Counted from the first letter of the stretch, positions 1,302 through 45,242 are shown. The stretch is 45,242 nucleotides of DNA from Bacillales bacterium (GCA_016288305.1 JAEEYW010000042.1:1-45242), one strand, 5' to 3'. Notes: generated from the sequence alone by a model not told the origin. A program made the numbers and translations.

Positions 1302-2609
1302 TCATTTTAGCATATAATGTGTATTTTTACCAGTATCTTCTTTTTTAATTATATTTTTTTCTAACATTTCAGCAATAATTTGATATGCTCTTGTTTTAGA
1401 AACGTTTAATAATTTTTCTGCTTCGTTTCTATTTATTTTATTATATTCTTTTAAATAATTAACAATTATATCTTCTTGTGATAAACTTGGAGAAATATTA
1501 TTTGAGTTATTTGATACTTCCTCATAGTTCATATTTGGAAGTGTAATAGAGAAAGTATTTTCTGTAGCATCAAAAATTGGTTTTTTAGCATATTCTGCAT
1601 AACTATCCATTATTCTTCCAATACCTGTTCCAAATGATTCAACATATCCAAATCTATAAAATATATTTGCTAAATTTGGATTTCTAGATGAAGAAACACC
1701 TTTAAATATTTCTTTCATAGTTATTCCATCAATCAATCCTCCCATAGAAAGTATTTCAAATTTATCATCATAAAGTGTTACAATTATGCTACTATCAAAA
1801 TAATAACTTCTATGTATTATGGCATTCAATAATGCTTCTCTTAATGAGTATTCAGGATAATCGCGTGTATCTATTCTTTTAAGTCCAACAATTTTTCCAC
1901 TAGTTTTATTGAATAATTCAAAATATTCAAAAATGTCATCAACTTGTTTTAAAACTGATCCAGTAAATTCTTTTCTATCGCGAAATTCTATTTTATTTGT
2001 TCCATTAAATATTGCACATTTTATTGTATAAGAACATTGATCAGATAATAATAATCCTAAATTAGTATATTTATTTTCTTCATTAATAATATTTAATAAT
2101 TTATATTTATTTTCATCAAATGATAAATGATTGGCCTTGAATTTTTTTTCTAAATATTCAAAAGTTAAATTTTGATTCTTAGAAATCATTTCTTCAAATC
2201 TTAATGTAGCATGTTCAAATATCATTTTTCTTATAATTTCGTCAGATGCCTGAATAGAAGAAGAACCATGTCTTAAATATACACCACTTGGTTTTAAACC
2301 TTTATCGGCTAAATAATATGGTTTGTTTGGACCACTTTGAATTTCTATAACAATAACATCTAGATTGTTATATTGTTCAATTTTGATTTGTGTATATTCT
2401 ATTAATGATGGCTTTATACCTTCATTTACCATTCCGGTTATTGCTTGTAAATTATTATCAATATTGTCTATTCCTATTATATTGCTATCATCATCTATAC
2501 CAATGTAAATTTTACCACCATTAGTGTTTGCAAATGCAATTATTTCTTTTTTGATATCTTTTGTTAAAATACTTTTTAATTCACAGCACTCATTTTCTAC
2601 GAATTTCAT
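1302..2609 (-). CDS. AlbA_2 (Schlafen-like divergent AAA) / HATPase_c_4 / C-terminal wHTH protein, often annotated as a putative transcriptional regulator or RecG-like
   Basis: The N-terminus ELKSILTKDIKKEIIAFANTNGGKIYIGIDDD is typical of AlbA_2. The mid-region REALLNAIIHRSY is typical of the HATPase_c_4 region. The C-terminal NRNEAEKLLNVSKTRAYQIIAEMLEKNII looks like a wHTH. The ATG at 2609 is preferred because GGGTGA lies 5 nt upstream; the ORF-track GTG at 2618 sits inside the SD sequence. Confidence 0.8.
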   Translation of the reverse strand: MKFVENECCELKSILTKDIKKEIIAFANTNGGKIYIGIDDDSNIIGIDNIDNNLQAITGMVNEGIKPSLIEYTQIKIEQYNNLDVIVIEIQSGPNKPYYLADKGLKPSGVYLRHGSSSIQASDEIIRKMIFEHATLRFEEMISKNQNLTFEYLEKKFKANHLSFDENKYKLLNIINEENKYTNLGLLLSDQCSYTIKCAIFNGTNKIEFRDRKEFTGSVLKQVDDIFEYFELFNKTSGKIVGLKRIDTRDYPEYSLREALLNAIIHRSYYFDSSIIVTLYDDKFEILSMGGLIDGITMKEIFKGVSSSRNPNLANIFYRFGYVESFGTGIGRIMDSYAEYAKKPIFDATENTFSITLPNMNYEEVSNNSNNISPSLSQEDIIVNYLKEYNKINRNEAEKLLNVSKTRAYQIIAEMLEKNIIKKEDTGKNTHYMLK

Positions 2610-2657
2610 TTTTATCACCCAATATTATTATATACGTTTATAAAAATATTATCAACG

Positions 2658-4874: not shown

Positions 4875-5060
4875 AAAAAAAGTCCAAGATAGCGAGCCCA
4901 TTAACGATAAAAACCTAGTTTTCTACCAGGTGGGTATCACATTGTTAACTTTAGGATCCTTATATTAAAATAAGTTTTCAACACCATTAACAAATTAGAT
5001 TCCCTATTACGTTAATCAGTCGGTTTTTTTATTACAGGCTTTAACCGCATTATCTTAGAC
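4875..5060 (-). ncRNA. Stand-alone structured RNA of about 186 nt; candidate 6S-like RNA (identity unconfirmed)
   Basis: A near-consensus sigma-A promoter (5067-5095) places the transcription start at about 5060 (GTCTAAGATAATGCGG...). The first 10 nt pair with nt 170-179 (TATCTTGGAC), which is directly followed by TTTTTT. The interior can be drawn as an imperfect extended rod. There is no ORF and no local terminator hairpin. Confidence 0.5.
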
Positions 5061-5066
5061 AACTTA

Positions 5067-9345: not shown

Positions 9346-9375
9346 ACAAAAAAATAAGAGCAATAAACTCTTATT
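9346..9375 (-). terminator. Rho-independent terminator overlapping the stop codon of the 1031-aa gene
   Basis: The minus strand reads AATAAGAG-TTTATTG-CTCTTATT followed by TTTTT. Confidence 0.65.
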
Positions 9376-12300
9376 TTGGTTGACAAGTATAATATTTTTT
9401 TCTGCCTTCTTCAATACTTGAAGCAACACACGTACCACTAGCTTTTGTATCACCAACATCACCTGTATTATCACCAATAAGTGTATGTAAGAAATTACTC
9501 ATACATCTTTCACCATTAGCATCACAACTTAAATTAAAATCATCATAACTATTATTCTTGTTATAACCTCGTATTTGCGTTATAATGGTTGGCGTTAATG
9601 TAAATGAATACATTGGTTCTCTTTCATATATATCTTGCTTACTAGTAATTACGCTTTCTACAATACCGCTTAGAAGACCGCATGTGCCATTACCATAATA
9701 ATCACACCAGTTAGCACCAGACGCTCTTTGATTATCTGATTGTCCTGGAAATGGATTTTTCAAATCAATAGTTCTAAAAATAACATTTAAACCACTATCC
9801 GTAACCAATTCATAATCTAAATTAAACTTACATGACCACTCACCATAATTGTTGTAAATATCAGATAAATACTTATCAACTTGTGTTACGCTACTAGTAC
9901 TACTTCTATGGCCTAGTTGACTATAATTTATCTTCAAATAATTGTTGCTATTAGCATTAAAAGATATTGGTAAATAACTCATATTCATTGGAATAGTATT
10001 GCTTTCATAACTTGATTTTAAAGCTACACCATTACCTTTTTTTATTAATTTATAACTATTATCATCACTATCAAGGGTATAATATAGCTTTACCGTTTTA
10101 CTTACTTTTGAAGACTTATGTAATGGAAAAGAAGCTCCTGTTTTTGTACATTTACCACTACCACAATCATTCAATTTCAACGTTTCGTAATTATAACTTT
10201 CACCATCATCATAGGTAACTTCAGATGGCGTTGATTTACCCATCTCATTTCCTTTTAAAGTACCAGCATATGAGTATTTATTTCCATCATAATAAGAAAT
10301 ACTTAAATTTGGTGACAAAGTATAAAGGTTATTGGAATTTAAATTATAACAAGCGTATAAAGTCTCAGATATAAAGTTTTCAGCATTTCTTTTAATTGTT
10401 TGATAGTTACTATACGCAGAGGAAGCATCAGCTGTAGGTGCAGATTTATTAGCGCACCTGCTATAACTCCATGATGCATTTCTATATGTACCATTATCAT
10501 TTACTGAAACGTTAACAGTACCATAATCGTACCATTCGTAAGAACTTGTTTCACTTTTGTTACACGTTGCCTCAAGCACTTTACATGTTGTAGTTGTCGT
10601 CTTTACATTAGTAGTCTCATTCACTGTTGGAGTACCACACACCAAATCATATCTGTTACTTGTATAATCTTTACATCCATCGGTTCTAGAATCAAATTTC
10701 CAATCTCCCATAACAGTTTTATCCTTGCCCGTTTCTTCATCTTTAACAACTTTAGGCACCCTCGTAGCAATTTCCTTGATTTCACATGTTTTACCGTAGT
10801 CGTTATATCCTGCACTAGTACAGCAAGAAAATGAATATTCCTTACTAGTTGAAGCTGAATACTTACAAGGACAATGAATCCAACTTTCATTACTATATTC
10901 ACCATATCCCGTAGTCGAAGCAATTCTTGTTGCTTTAGCTTCTTCCAATAGATAATTCAAATAAGCATCAACAATAGCCCTATTACGATCTTCTATATTG
11001 CTTTTAATTCTGCTTTGATTTACTACTGTATAACAAGTTCTAGAACCCTCAACAAATCCCAAGGCATTATTATAATATCTCGAAAAATCAATATACCTTC
11101 CAGCAACTACTGGCGTACTGCCCGCATTATAAAAGCCATATGTTTGAATGCTTTCATAACAATATACGCTACAATAATTACCCGTCGCATCAGATAAAGT
11201 ATTATCTTTATATTTTGAATTATTCACTATACATTTGTTAATATATTCATCTTCATCATATAGAGCGCCTTTGTCAAAATAATCTGCTGGAGAGTCATTA
11301 TAATTCTCACATTTATTAACAATACTAACACTATCACATATATCCGTAGCTAAATTAGTACAACAATTACTTACATAGTAATCATATACATCATCATGAT
11401 CAGCAGTTGTTACAATGCCTGATACATTTCTAATGAATGAATCAACAACAGTATTAATAGAACTTTTATTTGAACATTTCAATGGATTATTATTATATTG
11501 GCTATATCCCGAATTATTATTTATATATTTACAACTTAAGCCATTTCCCCATCCTGAATCAGGATTTTCCATATTCTTAGTTCTGATATATTCACCATTC
11601 ACTGGTACAGGTTCAGGTGATACTGTTATATATCCCAACTCTTTTTGTATAAATTTTAAACCTACATTAGGACATTTACCTGATGATAGATTAAATGTAC
11701 CATCACTTGTTTTAACAAGCCCTATATTAACACCTTTGTTTAAAGTATATGTATCATTATAAGACATATATTTTTCAGGGAAAGTAACAACTTTTTTAGT
11801 TGTAAAAATATATCTATCGCCTGAAACCATTAACGTTCCATTTATAGCCATTATACTTTGATCAGATGTAGCTGATATAATATTAGCTTTACCTGTATTA
11901 TAACGTCCAAAATTAATAGTAAAATTTAAGCCTAATGGTTCAACAGAATAATCACACTTTAATTCTTCAACAAGTGTTAATGGTAAATAAGATTGATTCG
12001 TTCTTTCTATAGGTTCAAAGGATGCTGTATAATTAGTTGTATTTTCCCGATAAAGATATAAGACAACATCTGTCGGGCAACTATTAGATTCAATTTTAAC
12101 ATTCTTACTACCTGTTTTAGAAATTGTAAATTTAGTATCACGGGGCATTATTATTACATCTTCCATCGTAACTGACGATTGAAACCATGGATTATAGTTC
12201 CATAAATGTTGAAGGCGAAAGTTAGGATCAGCCACCACTTTAAAATCAAAAGTAGTCGCATAATCATTCTCATTAGTTATATCTTCTAATATTGAGTTAT

Positions 12301-12466
12301 CATTAATTTTTACGCCTCTTATTTGGGCAACGGATGAATTTCCAGAAAAAACCACCTCTAAATCAATATCAAAACCTTCTTGATGATATAAGCAATTTAA
12401 AGCATTTACGCTATTAATTCCTATACAGCTTGCAAATATAATTAGCATATACCATAACTTCTTCAT
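9371..12466 (-). CDS. Large secreted Cys-rich protein (1031 aa), function unknown
   Basis: A 3.1-kb ORF with SD AGGGTGA and signal peptide MKKLWYMLIIFASCIGINSVNA. There are about 40 Cys residues, many in CxC/CC/Cx4C clusters, and the composition is rich in N/S/T/Y. No LPXTG, TM anchor or recognisable catalytic motif was found. Confidence 0.8.
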   Translation of the reverse strand: MKKLWYMLIIFASCIGINSVNALNCLYHQEGFDIDLEVVFSGNSSVAQIRGVKINDNSILEDITNENDYATTFDFKVVADPNFRLQHLWNYNPWFQSSVTMEDVIIMPRDTKFTISKTGSKNVKIESNSCPTDVVLYLYRENTTNYTASFEPIERTNQSYLPLTLVEELKCDYSVEPLGLNFTINFGRYNTGKANIISATSDQSIMAINGTLMVSGDRYIFTTKKVVTFPEKYMSYNDTYTLNKGVNIGLVKTSDGTFNLSSGKCPNVGLKFIQKELGYITVSPEPVPVNGEYIRTKNMENPDSGWGNGLSCKYINNNSGYSQYNNNPLKCSNKSSINTVVDSFIRNVSGIVTTADHDDVYDYYVSNCCTNLATDICDSVSIVNKCENYNDSPADYFDKGALYDEDEYINKCIVNNSKYKDNTLSDATGNYCSVYCYESIQTYGFYNAGSTPVVAGRYIDFSRYYNNALGFVEGSRTCYTVVNQSRIKSNIEDRNRAIVDAYLNYLLEEAKATRIASTTGYGEYSNESWIHCPCKYSASTSKEYSFSCCTSAGYNDYGKTCEIKEIATRVPKVVKDEETGKDKTVMGDWKFDSRTDGCKDYTSNRYDLVCGTPTVNETTNVKTTTTTCKVLEATCNKSETSSYEWYDYGTVNVSVNDNGTYRNASWSYSRCANKSAPTADASSAYSNYQTIKRNAENFISETLYACYNLNSNNLYTLSPNLSISYYDGNKYSYAGTLKGNEMGKSTPSEVTYDDGESYNYETLKLNDCGSGKCTKTGASFPLHKSSKVSKTVKLYYTLDSDDNSYKLIKKGNGVALKSSYESNTIPMNMSYLPISFNANSNNYLKINYSQLGHRSSTSSVTQVDKYLSDIYNNYGEWSCKFNLDYELVTDSGLNVIFRTIDLKNPFPGQSDNQRASGANWCDYYGNGTCGLLSGIVESVITSKQDIYEREPMYSFTLTPTIITQIRGYNKNNSYDDFNLSCDANGERCMSNFLHTLIGDNTGDVGDTKASGTCVASSIEEGRKKYYTCQPK

Positions 12467-23168: not shown

Positions 23169-25310
23169 TTATATTTTATTTAGGTTAAAATCAATAACAA
23201 CTTTAATATTACTATTTATATACTTATCACTAATATATTTTAAATATGGATATATTTTTTTTGTATCTTTATATTTAATTATAATTTGATAATAATAATT
23301 ATTATTTAATTTAGGCATCAAAGAAGCTGAAGGGCCTAAAATAATATCATCAATATTATCTTTTAAATAAGCATATATTTTAGAACTCTCTTCCTCACAT
23401 TTATTAGCATCTAAACCACTAATTTTAATTAAGCACAAATTATAAAATGGTGGATATTTTAAAGTTTTTCGAATACGCATCTCATCATTATAAAAACCAA
23501 CATAATCATGATTTTTAGCTCTTAAAAAACTATAATGATCCATATTAAATCCTTGAATTATAACTTCACCAGATAAACTACTTCTTCCTGCTCTTCCAGC
23601 TACTTGGCTTATTAAATGATAAGTCCTTTCAGCACTTCTAAAATCTGGTATATTTAACCCTGCATCAGCATTTATAACACCTACTAAAGTAACTAAAGGA
23701 AAATCAAGCCCTTTAGCTATCATTTGCGTACCAACTAAAACATTATAATTACCATCTTCAAATTCTTTAATTATCTTAGCATGAGCTTGCTTAGTAGAAG
23801 TCGTATCAACGTCCATACGAATAACTTTGGCTTTATTAAATTCAGCCTTGATTAATTCTTCCAACTTCTCTGTACCCATACCACGTTCATTAATTCTATC
23901 ACTACCACACTCTGGACATTTATATAATTTATTAGTTTCATAATTACAATAATGACAACGCATTTTTTTAGATTTAAGATGATATGTCAAAGGAATGTCA
24001 CAATTTGGACATTTATGTGTAAAGCCACAATTACCACATGTACTAATAGTTGTATAACCTCTCCTATTAAGTAAAATAATAGCTTGTTCACCTTTATTTA
24101 AACATTCATTTAAACGTTCTTTTAAAATACTTGAAAAAACAAAATTGTGCTTCTTTATTTCATTTTTCATATCAACTAATGTAACTAAAGGAAGATTATT
24201 ATTAACTCTTTTTTTCATTTCTAACAACTCATAAACGCCATTTTTAGCTCTTGTATAACTTTCAATAGTAGGTGTCGCGCTACCTAAAACAACAGGACAG
24301 TTATATGTTTTACCACGATATAAAGCAATATCTATAGCATGATATAAAGGATTGTTTTCCTGCTTATAAGTTGACGAATGTTCCTCATCAATTACAATTA
24401 AACCTAAATCAGTAAAAGGTGCGAAGATAGCACTCCTAGCTCCTATTACAATACTTACTTCTTTTCTTTCAACCTTACGCCATTCATCATATTTTTCACC
24501 GTCACTTAAACGACTATGTAAAATAGCAATAGAAGAACCAAATCTTCTTTTAAACGTAGATACAAGTTGCGGCGTCAAACTGATTTCTGGAACCAAAACA
24601 ATACACTGTTTATTTAAATCCAAAGCTTTCTTAATTAACTGCATATATACTTCTGTCTTACCAGATCCTGTTACACCATGTAGTAAATAAGGCTTAAATG
24701 TATTAAAACTAACACTATTGATAACATTATTTTGTTCATCAGTTAATACTTTAGTATCATCTTTGAATACAATATCATCTGTTAAACGATATACTTCTTT
24801 TTCATATTTTTCTATAATACCATTCTTAATTAATTTATTAACTATATAAGTTGATATACTACTTGCCTCTTTTAAAGATAAATCATTTATTCTTAATTTA
24901 TCAATTAATACTTTTTCCTTTTCATTTGGTTCATAATCTTTAACCAATCTAATGAATAAAGCTTTTTTTATATTAACTTTATTTACCTTTTTAGCTTTTA
25001 AAGCTGTAGGAAGCATATTTTGATAAGCTGACGTTAAAGTACATAAAGTTTTTTTGGAAATATATTTACCCAAATCTAACATTTCACTATTCAATACCGG
25101 ATTAACATCAACTAAAGAAATGATATCTTTTAGTTCATAGTCACAAGTTATACTATCCTGTATATCAACAATAAAGCCTTCTAAAGTTTGACTTCCAAAA
25201 GGCACCATACATCTTATACCTTTTTGAATACTAGATTCTAAAGATGTAGGTACATGATAAGTAAATTCTTTATCTATTTTTCTAACCTCTACTAAAACAC
25301 TTGCAACCAT
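23169..25310 (-). CDS. priA: Primosomal protein N' (replication restart helicase PriA)
   Basis: LLHGVTGSGKTEVY, DEEH, Cys4 zinc clusters (CGNCG...CPNCD...CHYC...CPECG), and GTQMIAKGLDFP are present. Confidence 0.95.
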   Translation of the reverse strand: MVASVLVEVRKIDKEFTYHVPTSLESSIQKGIRCMVPFGSQTLEGFIVDIQDSITCDYELKDIISLVDVNPVLNSEMLDLGKYISKKTLCTLTSAYQNMLPTALKAKKVNKVNIKKALFIRLVKDYEPNEKEKVLIDKLRINDLSLKEASSISTYIVNKLIKNGIIEKYEKEVYRLTDDIVFKDDTKVLTDEQNNVINSVSFNTFKPYLLHGVTGSGKTEVYMQLIKKALDLNKQCIVLVPEISLTPQLVSTFKRRFGSSIAILHSRLSDGEKYDEWRKVERKEVSIVIGARSAIFAPFTDLGLIVIDEEHSSTYKQENNPLYHAIDIALYRGKTYNCPVVLGSATPTIESYTRAKNGVYELLEMKKRVNNNLPLVTLVDMKNEIKKHNFVFSSILKERLNECLNKGEQAIILLNRRGYTTISTCGNCGFTHKCPNCDIPLTYHLKSKKMRCHYCNYETNKLYKCPECGSDRINERGMGTEKLEELIKAEFNKAKVIRMDVDTTSTKQAHAKIIKEFEDGNYNVLVGTQMIAKGLDFPLVTLVGVINADAGLNIPDFRSAERTYHLISQVAGRAGRSSLSGEVIIQGFNMDHYSFLRAKNHDYVGFYNDEMRIRKTLKYPPFYNLCLIKISGLDANKCEEESSKIYAYLKDNIDDIILGPSASLMPKLNNNYYYQIIIKYKDTKKIYPYLKYISDKYINSNIKVVIDFNLNKI

Positions 25311-25344
25311 GATATCACCTAATTAATTCTAACATACCAAACAT

Positions 25345-26220
25345 TTATTTGTCAATTAAAGTATCTATTTTGCTTATTAATAAATTACAGACATCTATAT
25401 CATTAATTAGTGTGATACTAAAAGTTTTATACCCTATTCTATTGATACTTGTCCCACAATGATATATTAAAGTATCATCTAATATAAAATACCTATCATG
25501 AAAGGTATTATTATATATAACTTTAAGATTATGATACTGTTTATTATATTTATTAATATCTTCTTTAGTTAGTAATTTATCTGTTGTTATCAATATAACT
25601 TCTATATCTAATCTTTTAATAATATCTAATACATTATAATCGGCATAGCTATCAATAATTATTAAATTACTTTTAGCTTCACTACATATTTCTAATATTT
25701 TACTTCTAGCATCATATATTTGGCCTTCAAAATATATTTCATTTATTTTTTTCTTCTCTTCAAATTTATCAAGAGCAGCTTCTATCAATTGTATACGATT
25801 ATCATGTTCTAACATTTTTGCTTCAACATTTGATAAACGATATACATTATTATCTATATAATGTCGCATGGCTACAAAAGCATCCATTATTTGAATTGAA
25901 GTTTGTATAGCATAATCACTTTTCAAAATTGTAGCAAGCATAGCTACGCCTTGTTCTGTAAACACTCTTGGGTTTTTATACTTTCCTCCGCGTGTTTCAA
26001 TTTTTTGGTCGAAATTTTCGACCAAAAAACATTTGCTCTCATAATCAGTTAGTTTCCAACAAAATCTCTCAGGAAATTTTTTGTAGTTATTTTTTACCGC
26101 TTCATTTATTCTTTTAGTCTCAACATGATATAGGTTAGCTAAATCTGAATCCAGCATTACTTGTTTACCTCTTATTTCATATATTTTATTTTTGATATCG
26201 TTATCTATAACATCAAGCAT
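25345..26220 (-). CDS. ORF6N (KilA-N-like) domain protein with conserved C-terminal HDR-motif module, copy A (291 aa)
   Basis: IYEIRGKQVMLDSDLANLY...FPERF...FTEQGVAMLA is the ORF6N signature. The C-terminal FEGQIYDA...IIIDSYAD...FHDRYFILDD..YHCGTSINRIGYK matches the long ORF6N family. The SD is AGGAGGTGA. Confidence 0.85.
   Translation of the reverse strand: MLDVIDNDIKNKIYEIRGKQVMLDSDLANLYHVETKRINEAVKNNYKKFPERFCWKLTDYESKCFLVENFDQKIETRGGKYKNPRVFTEQGVAMLATILKSDYAIQTSIQIMDAFVAMRHYIDNNVYRLSNVEAKMLEHDNRIQLIEAALDKFEEKKKINEIYFEGQIYDARSKILEICSEAKSNLIIIDSYADYNVLDIIKRLDIEVILITTDKLLTKEDINKYNKQYHNLKVIYNNTFHDRYFILDDTLIYHCGTSINRIGYKTFSITLINDIDVCNLLISKIDTLIDK
26001..26029. repeat. Perfect palindrome inside copy A (14-bp arms, 1-nt centre)
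   Basis: TTTTTTGGTCGAAA-T-TTTCGACCAAAAAA; it encodes FLVENFDQK. Confidence 0.9.
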
Positions 26221-26291
26221 ATTCTCACCTCCTACTAACTATATACGACAAAAAAAGGTAGATATTTAGTATACCGTCCACGTCCATTCTC

Positions 26292-26314
26292 TAAGGTCAC
26301 AATTTGTGACCTTA
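26292..26314. repeat. Perfect palindrome in pseudogene core C2 (11-bp arms)
   Basis: TAAGGTCACAA-T-TTGTGACCTTA; it encodes LRSQIVTL. Confidence 0.9.
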
Positions 26315-26504
26315 AAGCTGCATATTCTTGTTTAGTTATTTCAAAATAAAAGTCATTAGGAAATCTTAAAGCATTTCTCCTAACAGCTTGATTAATCTCT
26401 TTCGAACCATTTTTACGAAGAGCCGAAGAAAGCATAGCAACACCCTGTTCAGTAAATACGTGAGGTCTATTGTATTTTCCACCACGTTTTTCAATAAATC
26501 TTTT

Positions 26505-26527
26505 TTTGGTTTCAATTTGAAACCAAA
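26505..26527. repeat. Perfect palindrome in pseudogene core C1 (11-bp arms)
   Basis: TTTGGTTTCAA-T-TTGAAACCAAA; it encodes WFQIETK. Confidence 0.9.
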
Positions 26528-26748
26528 TAATTTTGCTTTCTTCTTCTGTTAACTGAAAATAAAAATCTGAAGGAAATCTGTTAATATTTCTTCTAACAGC
26601 TAGATTAATAGATTTGGTTCCATTTTACAATGATAAAGTCTAGCTAAATCAGAATCCAGCATTACTTGTTTACCTCTTATTTTATATATTTTATTCTTTA
26701 TATCTATATCAACCACTTCTTGCATATTTTTACCTCCTACTAACTAAA

Positions 26749-27630
26749 TTAAAAATCCGAAATCTCACTAATACACTTAACAAGCACATTAATCACATCT
26801 ATATCACTAATTAAATTAACACTAAAAGTTTTATACCCTATTCTATTGATACTTGTCCCACAATGATATACTAATGTATCATCTAATATAAAATACCTAT
26901 CATGAAAGGTATTATTATATACTACTTTAAGATTATGATACTGTTTATTATATTTATTAATATCTTCTTTAGTTAATAATTTATCTGTTGTTATTAATAT
27001 AACTTCTATATTTAATCTTTTAATTATATCTAATACATTATAATCGGCATAACTATCGATAATTATTAATTTACTTTTAGCTTCACTACATATTTCTAAT
27101 ATTTTACTTCTCGCATCATATATTTGCCCTTCAAAATATATTTCATTTATTTTTTTCTTTTCTTCAAATTTATTGAATGATTCTTGTAATAGTTTTACAT
27201 CATTATCCAGTTCTAAAACTTTAGTTTCTACATTTGATAATCTATATTCGCTATTACCTATGTAATGTCGCATAACTACAAATGCTCGCATTATAGATAT
27301 TGATACTTCTTCAGCTATTTCGGTATCAATTACTGCTGAAAGCATAGCTACCCCCTGTTCTGTAAATACATATGGCATATAGCGTCTACCACCATAGTTA
27401 CTTAATCTTGAGGTTCCAAATTGGAACCTCAAGTTTTGATACTCAGCAGATGTCAATTGAAAATAAAAATCATTAGGAAATCTATCAATATTTCTCTTAA
27501 CAGCTTTATTAATATCCTTAGTTCCATTTTTACAATGATATAACTTAGCTAAATCACTATCCAACATTACTTGTTTACCTCTTATTTCATATATTTTATT
27601 TTTGATATCGTTATCTATAACATCCATCAT
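26749..27630 (-). CDS. ORF6N (KilA-N-like) domain protein with conserved C-terminal HDR-motif module, copy B (293 aa)
   Basis: The architecture matches copy A. The first 27 aa and aa ~150-270 are nearly identical to copy A, while the middle differs (KNGTKDINKAVKRNIDRFPNDFYFQLTSAEYQNLRFQFGTSRLSNYGGRRYMPYVFTEQGVAMLS). Confidence 0.85.
   Translation of the reverse strand: MMDVIDNDIKNKIYEIRGKQVMLDSDLAKLYHCKNGTKDINKAVKRNIDRFPNDFYFQLTSAEYQNLRFQFGTSRLSNYGGRRYMPYVFTEQGVAMLSAVIDTEIAEEVSISIMRAFVVMRHYIGNSEYRLSNVETKVLELDNDVKLLQESFNKFEEKKKINEIYFEGQIYDARSKILEICSEAKSKLIIIDSYADYNVLDIIKRLNIEVILITTDKLLTKEDINKYNKQYHNLKVVYNNTFHDRYFILDDTLVYHCGTSINRIGYKTFSVNLISDIDVINVLVKCISEISDF
27407..27433. repeat. Perfect palindrome inside copy B (13-bp arms)
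   Basis: CTTGAGGTTCCAA-A-TTGGAACCTCAAG; it encodes LRFQFGTSR. Confidence 0.9.
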
Positions 27631-27708
27631 AATTTCACCTCCTACTAACTATATACGACAAAAATATATCAAATTCCTTCTATTAAACAAAAAAAGTATT
27701 AATTTAAG

Positions 27709-27735
27709 CTTGAAGTTTCAAATTGAAACTTCAAG
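27709..27735. repeat. Perfect palindrome in remnant D (13-bp arms)
   Basis: CTTGAAGTTTCAA-A-TTGAAACTTCAAG. Confidence 0.9.
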
Positions 27736-27896
27736 TAAAGCGTGCATAATAGATATTGAAGTTTCTAATGCCACCTCAGTATGAAGAACCGAAGAAAGCA
27801 TAGCCACCCCCTGTTCTGTGAATACATACGGTAATTTGCGAACGCCTCCATAATTATTATTATATTTTTGATTTCGTTATCTATAACATCCAGCAT
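27709..27896 (-). pseudogene. ORF6N remnant D: leader plus 11 N-terminal codons, internal deletion, FTEQGVAML segment, then an isolated palindrome fragment
   Basis: The ATG at 27896 gives MLDVIDNEIKN. Homology then resumes out of frame as NNYGGVRKLPYVFTEQGVAMLSSVLHTEVALETSISIMHA. This is followed by the 27709-27735 palindrome, which in another frame reads LKFQFETSS. The same leader TCACCTCCTACTAACTATATACGACAAAAA is at 27901-27930. Confidence 0.75.
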
Positions 27897-27953
27897 ATTT
27901 TCACCTCCTACTAACTATATACGACAAAAATATGCAATTTCCTTTTTAAGTAA

Positions 27954-27980
27954 CAAAAAAAAGTTGAAATAAATTCAACT
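27954..27980 (-). terminator. Rho-independent terminator after yqeH
   Basis: The minus strand reads AGTTGAA-TTTAT-TTCAACT followed by TTTTTTTT. Confidence 0.7.
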
Positions 27981-27981
27981 T

Positions 27982-28914
27982 CTATATTAAGCTATTCCTT
28001 GTAAATACATCGACATTATCTAATGTATAAATATTTAAAGTACCTTTACCATTTGCTTTGATAAAGCCTAAACCTTTAATAACTATATCATTGTTATTAA
28101 CTTTAATTGTATGTTTTCCTAAATCTTTATTTATATTATTATCTTTATAGTACCTATCTATTTTTAAACTATTAGATAAATATAACGTTAAGTTTATATC
28201 ACTTGCTTCTATTCTTAAATACTTATCAACAATAATAGTTTGTTTACCTTTAATTTGATATGTAATTGGTTTAATTTTCTTATTTGGAATAATTCTCTTT
28301 AATTCAGCACCACTAACATAATTTGTTATATCACCAATATCAAGTAATCCTGGTGTATCAAATAAAGTTAAATCATCATCCAAATTAACCTCAATTGTAT
28401 TTAAAGTTGTATTAGGAAGTGGACTTGTTGTTATTGAAGAGGTATTAGAAGAATAATTATAAATTAGTTTATTAATCATTGTTGATTTACCAGAATTAGT
28501 ATAACCAACAACATAGACATTATTAGATTTCTTATATTTTCTAATCATATCAATTAATGAATCAAATTGATAATTCTTATTACTACTTATAATTATCTTA
28601 TCAACACATTTAACGCCATAATCATAATTAAGTATTTTATCCTCATAAAAATCAGGTAATAAATCCCTTTTAGTTAATACTAACAATATATCATTATGAA
28701 TATATTTTGTTATTTCACTTAAATTTTTAATATTTAATAAATCAACCACTAATAAAACCAAATCATTAGTCTTATTAATATTCTCTAAAATAGGTATAAA
28801 ATCATTATTATCCTTAACAACAACTTTATATTCATTATAATTTTTAATTCTAAAACATCTTTCACACAATGTTTTATCTTCTATTAAAGCACCACAACCA
28901 ATACATTTATTCAT
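27982..28914 (-). CDS. yqeH: Ribosome biogenesis GTPase YqeH
   Basis: An N-terminal zinc ribbon (CIGCGALIEDKTLCERCFRIKNYNE) and a circularly permuted GTPase (LTKRDLL...GYTNSGKST...DTPGL) are present. The ATG at 28914 follows AAGGAAA and overlaps the yqeG stop; the track TTG at 28932 was rejected. Confidence 0.88.
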   Translation of the reverse strand: MNKCIGCGALIEDKTLCERCFRIKNYNEYKVVVKDNNDFIPILENINKTNDLVLLVVDLLNIKNLSEITKYIHNDILLVLTKRDLLPDFYEDKILNYDYGVKCVDKIIISSNKNYQFDSLIDMIRKYKKSNNVYVVGYTNSGKSTMINKLIYNYSSNTSSITTSPLPNTTLNTIEVNLDDDLTLFDTPGLLDIGDITNYVSGAELKRIIPNKKIKPITYQIKGKQTIIVDKYLRIEASDINLTLYLSNSLKIDRYYKDNNINKDLGKHTIKVNNNDIVIKGLGFIKANGKGTLNIYTLDNVDVFTRNSLI

Positions 28915-39680: not shown

Positions 39681-40307
39681 ATGCATAAAGCAATTTATCT
39701 CATCTTATTTATTCTTGTATGTCTTAGACAAGATAATAAAAACATGTTTTATAAAAATATCAAATTTGTTTCTAATCCTAACGATTATTTAGTACTAGTA
39801 AATAAAAATAATAAACTACCATCATCTTATATACCAAATGATTTAGAAATGGTTGAACAAAAATATTTACGAAAAGCAGCTAAAGAAAAATTTGAAGAAA
39901 TGCGTAAAGATGCTTTCGAACAAGGATACATAATTACCATTGCTTCCGCCTATCGTGATTATGATTATCAAAAAAAACTATTCGCATATTATGTCAAAGA
40001 AAAAGGCTTAGATTATGCGCTTTCCTGTTCTGCTAAAGCAGGTCACTCCGAACATCAAACAGGTTTAGCTGTTGATATAGAAGGAAGTAATAATGACTAT
40101 AATAAGTTTATAGAAACCAAAGAATATGAATGGTTAAAAGATAATGCCCATAAATACGGCTTTATTCTAAGATATCCTAAAGGAAAAGAAAATATTACAG
40201 GTTTTAAATTTGAACCTTGGCACTATCGATATGTTGGTGAAATAGCTACATACATATATCAAAATAAACTTAGTTTAGAAGAATATTTAAGCAAAAGAAA
40301 AAAGTAG
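39681..40307 (+). CDS. M15 family D-Ala-D-Ala carboxypeptidase (VanY-like), second paralogue
   Basis: SAYRDYDYQ...SEHQTGLAVDI...KYGFILRYPKGKE...EPWHYRYVG are present. The ATG at 39681 follows AGGTGG. Confidence 0.85.
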   Translation: MHKAIYLILFILVCLRQDNKNMFYKNIKFVSNPNDYLVLVNKNNKLPSSYIPNDLEMVEQKYLRKAAKEKFEEMRKDAFEQGYIITIASAYRDYDYQKKLFAYYVKEKGLDYALSCSAKAGHSEHQTGLAVDIEGSNNDYNKFIETKEYEWLKDNAHKYGFILRYPKGKENITGFKFEPWHYRYVGEIATYIYQNKLSLEEYLSKRKK

Positions 40308-42896: not shown

Positions 42897-43565
42897 TTAA
42901 TGACGTGCTTTTTTCAATGCGTCACATGCTGCACTTTGTTCTGCTTCTTTTTTACTGTGAGCTACGCCCTCACCATAGATAATATCATCTACTTTAACTA
43001 CTACTCTAAATGTTGGATTATGCGCAGGACCTGTTTCTTCTACTACTACATATTCTAATGATCTTTTATCTGTTTGAATTAGTTCTTGTAGCATTGATTT
43101 ATAATCTGTATCAAACACAATTTCATTATTTTCAATCGTTGTTATAACTATATCATAAATAAAATCTTTAGCTTTTTCAAAACCTTGATCTAAAAATATA
43201 GCACCTATTAAAGCTTCAAAAATATCAGCTACAATAGCTTTTCTATTTCTTCCACCGGTTTCTTCTTCACCAACACCTAATCTTAAATATTTATTTAATT
43301 CTAGTTTTAATGAATAAGCATAGTTTGCATCTTCGCATACATATCTGGCTCTATTTTTTGTCATAACGCCTTCATTATCTGTTGTATTTTGATATAAATA
43401 TTCACTTATAACAACTTCTAATACTGCATCCCCTAAATATTCTAAACGTTCATAACTTTCACAATTGTTTTCATTAGCATAAGATGTATGCGTTAAAGCA
43501 GTTAAATATAAATCTTCATTACTTGTTTTAATACCTAATTTATCTAGTAATTCCACATATATCAC
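42897..43565 (-). CDS. rnc: Ribonuclease III
   Basis: ALTHTSYANE...ERLEYLGDAVLE and a C-terminal dsRBD (GPAHNPTF...GVAHSKKEAEQSAA) are present. The true start is probably the GTG at 43556, after AGGTGA. Confidence 0.92.
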   Translation of the reverse strand: MIYVELLDKLGIKTSNEDLYLTALTHTSYANENNCESYERLEYLGDAVLEVVISEYLYQNTTDNEGVMTKNRARYVCEDANYAYSLKLELNKYLRLGVGEEETGGRNRKAIVADIFEALIGAIFLDQGFEKAKDFIYDIVITTIENNEIVFDTDYKSMLQELIQTDKRSLEYVVVEETGPAHNPTFRVVVKVDDIIYGEGVAHSKKEAEQSAACDALKKARH

Positions 43566-43625: not shown

Positions 43626-45242
43626 TTAATATTTAATTAAACGAGACCCGACGTTGACATGACTATCACTAGATGAAGTACTCAAAGTCCAAGACCACAA
43701 ACCGGCACCACTAGGACTATCCCAATAACCGCCGAAAAGGGCTATTTTATTGCCTGAATTTTGATAATAATAATCTGTTACAACATTAGTTCCTACTTCC
43801 GTTGGAAAAGCAAATAAGGAATTATTACTGTCGTAGCCTAAAGTTTTAGCATAGCCACTAGTTGTTGCATTAGTATACCCTAAAGCATGATATGTTCCAT
43901 CAAATTTGTCGACTTGATAACTTTTCATATCTGTTGATACATATGCTATATAATCTTTAACATTAATACCATCGACAAATTGGTATATATTTCCGAATAT
44001 ATCTTCCATACCACGATATATCATACTATGCTTGCCATCGTTATTTAATGTTCCTGACTTCATACCTAAACTATCTGTTTGACCTGATTTAGTGGCAGCT
44101 GTTGCTAGAACACTATTTGTTGATATATTAACAGCTGCTCCATCAAAATAAACGGCTGTTCCAGTTACGCCATTCGCACTATAACTTTCTTTTTTCGTTA
44201 TAGTTCTATTAGCTGCTACAGAATTATTCCATACAGAGCCATTTCCTATATTTATTGGCTGACCTACGACAAATTTATCCGCTGATGTCGTATTTATTAT
44301 AATTCTACTTGTATTATTCTCAGCGACCAATGCTTTATCGTCATTGCTCATACGATATTGTGTTATACCATTGCCTAGTTTAGATTGAGAATTATAATCA
44401 GCATATTCTACTAAGTATAGCATTTGAATTAAATTATAATGATAATCCATTTGTCCAAAGTCACTACCTAGTTTATTTGATTCATTCCTAAACCATGTTA
44501 TATTTTTACTTACTTGAGGAAATACGCCACTTTTTGAATGTAATTTACTATCGCTGTATGAAGATGTATATCTTCCAACTGAGAATTCTTCAGATTTTAT
44601 ATATCCTTCTAGTGGATATTTAGATATTGATTGATATTCATATCCATTTTCTTGCCATCTTTTGTAATAAAATTCTGGTATTTTTGTTAATACTTCTCCA
44701 TTACTTCCATCGAATTTGAAATTGCTATCTCCATAATAAGCTGTTATTTGATCATTTTCTGTATCATAATTATAACTTATGATATCTTTCCATGGATATA
44801 AATTATCAAAATCATTTACTACATAAGAACCATCTTTTGCAGCATTAGCTACTTTGCCTACATTGTTATCTACTCTTTCCCAGGCTGATGAAGTTGATGA
44901 TAAATTTCTTCTTACAGTATACTTAACATTAGTATCGCCAGTAGTTATATTATAATCTTTACCATCATAAACAACGGTTCTACCATTTGTTTGAATTACC
45001 AATGAATCAAAGCCATTATTGTAATCAAGACTAACTATAGAAGCACCTTTAGTATCTACCATTAAAGCTAGTTCCTCATTAGTAATACCATCTTTACAAA
45101 TGTTATCAGATCCATCTAATTGATTAATCATACCACTTGTTTGACAATAATTATTAACTGCTTCAACAATTCTTTGTGTTTCAGTATAAGCTACTGAATC
45201 CTTTGAATCATTTATAACATCAATTACTATTGGTGTAGCTAT
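43626..45242 (-). CDS. Large pilin-like protein: prepilin-type N-terminal region fused to a C-terminal domain of about 500 aa; the 5' end runs off the window
   Basis: The frame stays open from the track ATG (45131) to the window edge. The extra 37 codons read IATPIVIDVINDSKDSVAYTETQRIVEAVNNYCQTSG, which is 28/34 identical to residues of the 130-aa pilin-like protein at 17917-18309. The C-terminus ends ...GGYWDSPSGAGLWSWTLSTSSSDSHVNVGSRLIKY. Confidence 0.8.
   Translation of the reverse strand: MATPIVIDVINDSKDSVAYTETQRIVEAVNNYCQTSGMINQLDGSDNICKDGITNEELALMVDTKGASIVSLDYNNGFDSLVIQTNGRTVVYDGKDYNITTGDTNVKYTVRRNLSSTSSAWERVDNNVGKVANAAKDGSYVVNDFDNLYPWKDIISYNYDTENDQITAYYGDSNFKFDGSNGEVLTKIPEFYYKRWQENGYEYQSISKYPLEGYIKSEEFSVGRYTSSYSDSKLHSKSGVFPQVSKNITWFRNESNKLGSDFGQMDYHYNLIQMLYLVEYADYNSQSKLGNGITQYRMSNDDKALVAENNTSRIIINTTSADKFVVGQPINIGNGSVWNNSVAANRTITKKESYSANGVTGTAVYFDGAAVNISTNSVLATAATKSGQTDSLGMKSGTLNNDGKHSMIYRGMEDIFGNIYQFVDGINVKDYIAYVSTDMKSYQVDKFDGTYHALGYTNATTSGYAKTLGYDSNNSLFAFPTEVGTNVVTDYYYQNSGNKIALFGGYWDSPSGAGLWSWTLSTSSSDSHVNVGSRLIKY

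Follow-up and report, generated by a model that had tools for sequence, protein, structure and literature searches.

Tandem ORF6N-head genes between yqeH and priA of a Bacillales genome: a mosaic probably reshuffled by ordinary recombination, with a covarying palindrome inside the coding sequence

What kind of locus places two intact genes side by side with several broken relatives, nearly identical at their ends and hardly alignable in the middle, in the midst of housekeeping genes? The question is raised by a contig of a Bacillales bacterium (GCA_016288305.1, JAEEYW010000042.1:1-45242; this whole stretch of 45,242 nucleotides is called the window below), in which an array of ORF6N genes occupies positions 25345-27980 of the minus strand, wedged between yqeH and priA. 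We believe that the locus is probably a tandem cluster of paralogous single-gene accessory elements, each with an ORF6N head and a PLD-like effector (PDC-S05), which was reshuffled by ordinary recombination. The main feature of its “hypervariable core” is a palindrome within the coding sequence, which the initial annotation of this DNA overlooked.

The array consists of two intact paralogues (A and B) and the debris of at least four further copies (D1, D2, C1 and C2); all the units are direct repeats. In minus-strand order, the yqeH stop codon is followed by a hairpin with a T-run, D (D1, then D2), B, C1-C2 and A, and then by priA, which starts 35 nt past the end of A. The genes of RuvB, RuvA, Fmt and PriA flank the array at one end and those of YqeH, YqeG, GatD and MurT at the other. 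The initial annotation had described D, B, C and A in this order between the yqeH terminator and priA, as an accessory insertion in a run of core genes, with C as two cores fused head to tail and D as scrambled; the sequence and its translations agree with this in full, the flanks being all housekeeping genes and both cores of C being truncated.

The mosaic is seen in the comparison of A with B. Their synonymous divergence (dS, Nei-Gojobori) is 0.22 in codons 1-33, 1.5 in the core, 0.9 in the middle, 0.21 in the C-terminal module (C-module) and 3.1 in the tail, and the heterogeneity of dS along the gene is sevenfold. Since the values per segment are so different, segments of one gene differ greatly in age, and selection on amino acids cannot produce this pattern. 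Among 187 family members, the core of A is nearest to that of P0030 (100%) and then to that of L025 from another metagenome-assembled genome (MAG; 83%), while B ranks only 165th; the core of B is nearest to P0107 and others (76%), with A at rank 181. For the C-module, A and B rank second to fourth for each other (95%). Among close alleles the nearest neighbour switches along the gene, and the pairwise homoplasy index (PHI) for five of them is 0.174, whereas permutation gives a mean of 0.257 and none of 2000 permutations reaches so low a value (p<0.0005). A recombination test of this kind had been proposed initially, and sharp switches between near-identity and divergence had been read there as a sign of either cassette exchange by gene conversion or strong diversifying selection; the heterogeneity of dS, the nearest neighbours of the cores and PHI together uphold recombination. 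The mosaic was produced by it. The leader with the first 33 codons and the PLD-like module of about 380 nt are young and lineage-wide, and the ORF6N cores are old, deeply diverged allelic types.

Several details of the A/B comparison were given initially by eye and can now be made exact. The C-modules are near-identical without indels, as stated, with 20 mismatches in 379 positions (94.7% identity) rather than about 14 in 350. The long identical run in the 5' block exists; its longest stretch is 60 nt, not 64. The core barely aligns (37-60% identity in 30-nt windows), and the last codons also differ, the final 50 nt or so of A and B being 33-53% identical. A common leader had been ascribed to all four units: the 30-mer TTTTTGTCGTATATAGTTAGTAGGAGGTGA is found in three exact copies on the minus strand (from 26225, 27635 and 27901; none in 100 shuffles), i.e., in A, B and D, while C has only a diverged version of its Shine-Dalgarno part.

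Could the same picture arise by duplication in situ followed by diversifying selection on the core, with no recombination? The ratio of nonsynonymous to synonymous divergence (dN/dS) is indeed 0.41 in the core and only 0.11 in the C-module. However, synonymous sites are saturated in the core and not in the ends, each core is far closer to cores of other genomes than to that of its neighbour, PHI is significant, and the reading frame of the palindrome differs between A and B. We consider the chance of this explanation close to negligible, and the strong diversifying selection suggested initially does not follow from a ratio of 0.41 with saturated dS.

A second explanation, also put forward initially, is that the fragments are silent cassettes. 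Modelled on pilE/pilS of Neisseria or vlsE of Borrelia, it would make A and/or B the expression sites, C and D the silent donors and the palindrome the site where breaks are initiated. As in those systems, promoterless truncated core fragments lie between expressed copies, the conserved blocks that bracket the variable core are short, and a DNA structure is located in or near the variable part; palindromes are known hotspots of breakage and recombination, C1, C2 and D2 each keep a perfect one, and the PHI signal is real. Nevertheless, the fragments are frameshifted and lack the 3' homology block: C1 keeps the 5' block only, and C2 and D2 keep neither. No core of A or B was copied from C1, C2 or D, to which they are similar only at the family level; conserved flanks on both sides and expressed variants derived from cassettes, the marks of a cassette system, are thus missing. 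The palindrome is family-wide, being present in single-copy and phage genes as well. The breakpoints of A/B identity are located at about nt 100 and 480 of the coding sequence and the palindrome at about nt 200, so it is not the recombination junction. Debris similar to C and D adjoins family copies in other genomes and looks like plain deletion there.

The machinery for a programmed switch was also looked for. Inverted repeats between the units are short and at chance level (71-100% complementary), and a scan of 39 larger open reading frames (ORFs) outside the array, mostly housekeeping, detected no recombinase, transposase, integrase or reverse transcriptase; the initial statement that the window has no recombinase gene stands. 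Programmed inversion, which calls for flanking inverted repeats and a nearby invertase, finds neither, and a diversity-generating retroelement is at odds with the lack of a reverse transcriptase in the window and with the differences between the cores, which are not adenine-specific and include indels and a change of frame. Programmed cassette switching is therefore not supported, and nothing in these data points to within-clone switching; we regard a pilE- or vlsE-like system as quite improbable. The initial annotation itself had named plain deletion derivatives as the outcome that would speak against exchange, and the fragments do prove to be frameshift and deletion derivatives. Specificity subunits (HsdS) of type I restriction-modification systems resemble the array in their variable recognition segments between conserved recombination arms, mosaic alleles and tandem partial copies; unlike them, the array has no inverted repeats, invertase, methyltransferase or restriction partner, and the effector is fused to the head.

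A comparison with relatives, which had also been proposed, found the same conserved ends around other cores both at other sites and at the same yqeH site. One such gene follows ftsH (P0005, contig L002), another follows pheT (P0003, L163), and a third with the same conserved ends precedes rpsL (P0030, L164); in L002, P0005 is followed by a 110-aa derivative with a microhomology deletion and by a 5' stub. In L165 and L166, whose YqeH is 92% identical, an intact gene with a C1-type N-terminus and yet another core is located after yqeH. A relative with 80% YqeH identity has unrelated genes and no ORF6N gene between yqeH and priA. Decay is seen elsewhere too, e.g., a stub with retained palindromes in L012. 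No synteny with the flanks of the window was found among 34 related genome loci.

Such a distribution makes one think of selfish free-standing genes similar to those of homing endonucleases: the head would target an empty site, the PLD-like nuclease would cut it, repair would copy the gene, and repeated invasion and decay at one site would build an array. Insertion between conserved genes with presence/absence variation, which is typical of homing, is found at no fewer than four sites in close relatives, where co-oriented single genes with their own leader are located in short gaps between housekeeping genes. Intact copies lie beside decayed ones as in a homing cycle, and a variable DNA-binding head is joined to a conserved nuclease-like module. 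The homing genes seg and mob of T-even phages are similar in that single genes with their own signals occupy variable sites, combine nuclease-type and variable DNA-binding modules and leave decayed copies; the genes considered here have a PLD-like rather than a GIY-YIG or HNH module and belong to a bacterial chromosome. Against homing, arginine stands at the position of the catalytic lysine, one core (that of A and P0030) is found beside different downstream genes (although the contig may be chimeric), and PADLOC classes the family as associated with defence islands. No pair of an empty site and a target was recovered: between yqeH and priA, the closest relatives hold another member of the family and the distant one holds unrelated genes. 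We consider homing rather unlikely as the explanation of the locus; the homing and the defence readings are not mutually exclusive.

It can also be suspected that the array is an artefact, in which dispersed copies were collapsed or chained by the assembler into a false tandem. Repeats of 380 nt with 95% identity are hard for short-read assemblers, and the graph of another assembly breaks at window position 26330, one branch leaving A within the C-module towards rpsL. In contrast, contig L001 of another assembly (1406 nt) is identical at 100% to window positions 26330-27735 and so confirms a part of D, all of B, C1 and a part of C2. Contig L164 (positions 1-980, compared with 25415-26330 of the window) has 758 identical nt, covering C2 and the first 648 nt of the A coding sequence, and thus contains the identical C2-A junction. 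L165 and L166 confirm an ORF6N gene directly after yqeH, and tandem pairs are common in other MAGs. We consider an artefact very improbable. L164 leaves the window inside the C-module at position 25572 for a P0004-like 3' end followed by rpsL-rpsG-fusA; it may be either a true recombinant between copies or a short-read chimera.

What do these genes encode? The Pfam domain ORF6N (PF10543) scores 100.5 bits in A and 117.6 bits in B at a cut-off of 27.8, and 47.8 and 29.4 bits in the fragments 26235-26435 and 26600-26725. PADLOC assigns both proteins to PDC-S05 (model PDLC04869; E 3e-85 for A and 1e-88 for B, with model positions 12-301 of 306 covered), a candidate single-gene defence class of that database which also holds RhuM-family proteins. 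B consists of an ORF6N head (residues 11-100), a long helix and a PLD-like module. Its AlphaFold2 model (pLDDT, the predicted local distance difference test, 73) has a strand/helix head (13-124), a long helix (131-157) and an alpha/beta C-terminal domain. Foldseek relates the whole chain to TrmBL2/TrmB (E 3e-7) and the C-module to Zucchini, MITD1, PLD (PLD4) and TDP1, with probability 1.0 and E from 2e-5 to 1e-2, but with TM-scores of 0.3-0.5 only. The invariant motif H243-D-R245-x4-D250-x7-G258-T-S260-x-N262 (numbering of B; D244 is its D) resembles the HxK(x)4D(x)6GSxN motif of the PLD/HKD superfamily but departs from it by the replacement of K with R and by one additional residue in the spacing. 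BfiI, Nuc, Zucchini and TrmB/TrmBL2 may be similar in the fold of the C-module (Zucchini/PLD/TDP1) and in the order of head, helix and PLD (TrmBL2), and differ in having H-x-K; no solved structure related by sequence was found in single-sequence or profile searches.

The family is large: at least 8000 database clusters match B, many at 65-70% identity, and they originate mostly from gut metagenomes and MAGs labelled “Bacilli bacterium”. The full-length architecture is also found in Bacteroidota, Verrucomicrobia, Proteobacteria, bacteria of the candidate phyla radiation (CPR) and archaea. PHROGs matches the head only, annotated as “anti-repressor”; viral contigs contain the head only and never the PLD-like module, and in GenBank only five metagenomic phage records have a similar head. 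An exact-protein look-up for A, P0002 and P0004 gave no record.

A “RhuM family protein” of Bacteroides thetaiotaomicron has a RhuM head as its N-terminal half, and its C-terminal half is homologous to the C-module (BLASTP E 3e-20). One effector thus occurs with two alternative heads, ORF6N and RhuM-N, and this accounts for the grouping of ORF6N and RhuM members in PADLOC. The PDC-S05 class and RhuM (PF13310) share with our genes the full-length PDC-S05 match, the C-module, a palindrome in the head (described below for RhuM) and a RhuM-Fic or reverse-transcriptase gene beside the copies of relatives; here the head is ORF6N, the setting is housekeeping, and PF13310 matches neither A nor B nor the C-module taken alone. 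In relatives, a RhuM-Fic gene adjoins the copies and a reverse-transcriptase gene is located about 3 kb upstream; RhuM-Fic, reverse-transcriptase and DUF1016-like nuclease genes are all among the neighbours in some of them. In the one experimental test found, a PDC-S05 representative with a RhuM domain, taken from a cold-seep genome of another phylum, protected E. coli against phages: plating fell about 1000-fold for T7 and T5 and about 10-fold for T4 (bioRxiv 10.1101/2024.09.26.614923). A defence role of the ORF6N-PLD subfamily has, by analogy, indirect support. The cluster belongs, in our opinion, with modular defence or selfish genes whose recognition heads have been exchanged; its housekeeping setting is unusual.

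We presume the following mechanism. Homologous recombination of the RecA type, or gene conversion, would use the two conserved blocks as homology arms, moving cores between copies and making the ends uniform; the truncated units would be left by unequal crossing-over, slippage and microhomology deletions within the tandem. The protein may be a dimer in which the variable ORF6N head selects the nucleic-acid target and the conserved PLD-like module is the effector, and several heads on one effector would broaden recognition. The reshuffling, as far as the sequences suggest, would be population-level homologous recombination between the conserved blocks with a high turnover of copies, so that the switch would be evolutionary and not programmed within a cell. 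The locus would then be a clean natural case of a PLD-like family with ORF6N/RhuM heads diversifying by the reshuffling of old heads onto an effector homogenised within the lineage, with family copies scattered among essential genes of gut Bacilli with small genomes.

A number of points weigh against this interpretation. The data are compatible with either replacement of the core or homogenisation of the ends as the dominant process. The comparison sequences are all short-read metagenome assemblies, in which chimeras are possible within a 380-nt repeat of 95% identity, and the first position of L164 coincides with the end of L001. For the PLD assignment the basis is similarity of fold at those low TM-scores, with arginine in place of the HxK lysine. 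The PDC-S05 member validated with phages has a RhuM head rather than ORF6N, and the flanks in the window are housekeeping genes rather than the defence island expected of PDC-S05 by its location.

Two variants of the family are worth mentioning. P0002, P0006, P0009 and other matches of about 400-420 aa form a sizeable subfamily that carries two in-frame tandem ORF6N heads on one PLD-like module; C is not a double-head protein of this type, its second core lacking the first 34 residues. In MAGs similar to Candidatus Onthousia (L003 4968-7325 and L006 4968-7330), a set of three genes recurs: ORF6N-PLD (298 aa), a tightly coupled short ORF6N (170-172 aa) and RhuM-Fic. The short protein has a conserved C-terminus LEHDKRIKALEDSLKKL without a PLD module and may be a functional partner rather than debris. 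In L003 the set is flanked by an acetate kinase gene on either side, and a reverse-transcriptase gene lies about 3 kb upstream of it.

What, then, do such variable cores have in common? Each core contains a palindrome with the consensus GGTC[GA]CAA[AT]TTG[CT]GACC and perfect arms of 10-16 nt. The pattern has five matches in the window against 0.13 expected. Upstream of the FTEQG codons, the longest perfect arm averages 11.2 nt (87 genes from 80 genome loci), compared with 4.8 nt after the same peptides were re-encoded with the codon usage of the gene and 4.8 nt downstream of these codons. At positions 2-13 from the centre, 92.5% of the pairs are Watson-Crick in 123 unique segments (phage genes included), against 59.8% for shuffled columns (maximum 62.4%) and about 30% when the partner is slid by one position; all four types of pair are seen at position 4. 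The carriers include Bacilli, Bacteroidota, Proteobacteria, CPR bacteria, archaea and phages. The same inner consensus is read in two frames, as L-R-S-Q-I-V-T-S in 104 genes and as L-V-A-N-C-D-R in 19, with B in the former class and A in the latter.

An origin of the palindrome at the protein level was considered and rejected on the strength of the synonymous resampling (4.8 vs 11.2 nt) and the two frames. Because the same consensus is read in both, the constraint acts on nucleotides and not on the peptide. In the AlphaFold2 model, this peptide makes up the last part of a helix and a loop of low confidence. Constraint at the nucleotide level is thus partly responsible for the apparent hypervariability of the protein in this segment.

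Whatever the architecture (PLD fusion, phage ORF6N, short ORF6N or RhuM head), each head domain has a single palindrome. Genes with the RhuM head (L171 3497-4366; L003 6381-7325; L172-L251; L253, L254, L256 and L257) have an analogous covarying palindrome with different arms, e.g., AACTGTCGCAAA-A-TTTGCGACAGTT and GTCAAGGA-A-TCCTTGAC, located 46-55 nt upstream of the YNLDxIISVGY codons; its mean arm is 10.1 nt compared with 4.8 nt in a control region (41 unique genes). Among plasmid genes, those of Pseudomonas paraeruginosa, Legionella pneumophila, Rhodobacter and Thiodictyon have it; it is weak in one Klebsiella gene and absent from one Ligilactobacillus gene.

The palindrome also outlives the genes. 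In the window, D2 is a lone copy about 95 nt upstream of the B start codon. In L012 (4795-4967), an N-terminal stub and two stand-alone palindromes, one with the arms of the gene itself, are located upstream of an intact gene; in L021 (4903-4921), one palindrome with an A/T run is located between a DUF1016/YhcG-like nuclease gene and an intact family gene downstream.

The role of this element is a matter of competing guesses. Our leading one, which we put forward tentatively, is that the palindrome is the cognate DNA site of the head it helps to encode, i.e., a self-operator or cis site co-inherited with the binding domain. It agrees with one palindrome per head in every architecture, with an inner arm that is conserved as sequence beyond what pairing requires and is identical in both frames, and with the lack of strand asymmetry, G:T and A:C mismatches being equally frequent. 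The degraded upstream copies (D2, L012, L021) stay perfectly palindromic, and in L012 the arms are those of the downstream gene. At the same time, the element is located inside the coding sequence and not at a promoter, the remnants that precede intact genes in the window and in L021 have palindromes unlike those of the genes they precede, and arms of 13-16 nt are long for an operator. As for operators elsewhere in the window, the only other copy is GGTTTTAAATTTGAACC at 40200-40216, which has one mismatch, lies in a VanY-type gene and is probably a chance match.

Cis sites inside the gene of their own binder are known: parS in parB/spo0J, the iterons of the lambda origin in gene O and the pT181 origin in repC. 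These are similar in having a conserved palindromic element within the coding sequence of a DNA-binding protein, co-inherited with it; here the putative site is located in the coding segment of the DNA-binding domain itself and is read in two frames.

The next guess, also doubtful, is a structured mRNA hairpin that acts in translation, in decay (e.g., by RNase III) or in premature termination of a potentially toxic protein. As RNA, the palindromes fold at -10 to -20 kcal/mol with z from -3 to -4.6 (-20.3 kcal/mol and z -4.6 in B). About a quarter of the genes have a non-complementary 3-nt centre, as a loop would; the window encodes an RNase III (42897-43565, minus strand); and a terminator scan flags three palindromes, on the antisense strand. 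The inner arm is, however, more conserved than pairing requires, and no U-tract follows the hairpin on the sense strand. Strand-specific G:U wobble was tried as an indicator and had to be dropped: G:T exceeded A:C at first in cellular genes (24 vs 7), but the counts were 35 vs 34 with phage genes and 23 vs 20 after clustering. This equality provides no evidence that the sense transcript specifically is the selected form.

Finally, the palindrome could be a functionless quasi-palindrome perpetuated by template-switch repair. Correction of quasi-palindromes is an established mutational process; but the position, sequence and presence of the element are conserved across phyla, in two domain families and in two frames, which makes this origin unlikely.

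Going beyond the self-site, one may speculate, with more doubt than confidence, that each ORF6N or RhuM-N head forms with its putative site a self-contained, co-inherited specificity cassette. If so, the array would be a set of mutually orthogonal head/site pairs (GGTCGAAA, GGTTCCAA, GGTTTCAA and GGTCACAA) on one shared effector, and the palindromes kept in debris upstream of intact copies would be working operators and not junk.

Whatever the role, this perfect, covarying coding palindrome of 27-33 bp provides a strong case of a nucleic-acid element that dominates how a protein segment evolves. No description of it was found in the open-access literature by name or by sequence, and Rfam gives no match at the gathering threshold, the region 25200-28100 yielding only matches at chance level (E >= 2). 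RhuM/ORF6N genes abound in restriction-modification and defence loci, and the palindrome leads one to expect in them a regulatory or cis-acting layer that has so far gone unnoticed.

The coordinates of the features are collected in the table.

Table. Units, leaders and palindromes of the ORF6N array (window positions; a point marks a feature given without strand)
Feature	Position	Strand	Description and basis
Hairpin AGTTGAATTTATTTCAACT with T-run	27962..27980	-	Sequence; follows the yqeH stop immediately
Leader 30-mer of unit D	27901..27930	-	Exact match and alignment of the four leaders; whole conserved upstream block of about 60 nt kept
Remnant D1	27736..27896	-	N-terminal stub of 11 codons, MLDVIDNEIKN, then out-of-frame junction to ...NNNYGGVRKLPYVFTEQGVAMLSSVLHTEVALETSISIMHA
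Remnant D2	27709..27735	.	Lone perfect palindrome CTTGAAGTTTCAATTTGAAACTTCAAG, 13-nt arms, codes LKFQFETSS
Leader 30-mer of unit B	27635..27664	-	Exact match; full conserved block upstream
Intact copy B, 293 aa	26749..27630	-	Pfam, PADLOC, AlphaFold2/Foldseek, invariant columns
C-module block of B	26795..27173	-	94.7% identity to the A block, no indels
Pseudogene C1	26415..26746	-	Diverged Shine-Dalgarno/leader, N-terminus MQEVVDIDIKNKIYKI..., core through FTEQGVAMLSSALR, remainder deleted
Pseudogene C2	26255..26414	-	Core fragment, residues about 35-86 (KNGSKEINQAV...RSQIVTLENGRGRYTKYLP)
Leader 30-mer of unit A	26225..26254	-	Exact match; upstream conserved block absent
Intact copy A, 291 aa	25345..26220	-	Same architecture as B; Pfam, PADLOC
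C-module block of A	25391..25769	-	Alignment to B
Palindrome of A	26001..26029	.	TTTTTTGGTCGAAA-A-TTTCGACCAAAAAA, 14-nt arms; read F-L-V-E-N-F-D-Q-K (frame class 1)
Palindrome of B	27407..27433	.	CTTGAGGTTCCAA-T-TTGGAACCTCAAG, 13-nt arms; read N-L-R-F-Q-F-G-T-S-R (frame class 0)
Palindrome of C1	26505..26527	.	TTTGGTTTCAA-A-TTGAAACCAAA, 11-nt arms
Palindrome of C2	26292..26314	.	TAAGGTCACAA-A-TTGTGACCTTA, 11-nt arms
Palindrome of D2	27709..27735	.	CTTGAAGTTTCAA-T-TTGAAACTTCAAG; inverted repeat I6

A hairpin, which is probably the terminator of yqeH, bounds the array on its 5' side. After yqeH, L165 and L166 have the same hairpin, and a nearly identical one with the same downstream leader follows ftsH in L002. 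After the stub of D1, an ORF6N core continues in another frame with its GG...FTEQG...SISIM part, as seen from translation in the other frame and from the repeat families; about 170 nt were lost there, including the palindrome segment. C1 is frameshifted by a 1-nt deletion in an A-run at about 26623-26626 and is fused to C2 at about 26415, and C2 directly abuts the truncated leader of A. Because the conserved block 5' of this leader is missing, A is probably co-transcribed from further upstream.

A scan for the sigma-70 consensus found no promoter inside the conserved leader. The best sigma-70-like site of the region (25326-25355, minus strand; TTGACA, an 18-nt spacer, TAGAAT and a TG motif) overlaps the last codons of A and is directed into priA, so that the priA promoter may lie in, or share sequence with, the end of the array.

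Some features of the window are located away from the array. A gene with Schlafen AlbA_2 and HATPase_c_4 domains (1302-2618, minus strand) beside tRNA-Gly (2767-2841) is possibly a further accessory or defence-type gene. Two large ORFs on the minus strand, of 1031 aa (9371-12466) and 501 aa (43626-45131), have no Pfam match at E 1e-5. A 6S RNA (Rfam RF00013, 54.4 bits) is located at 4877-5064 of the minus strand, upstream of gltX.

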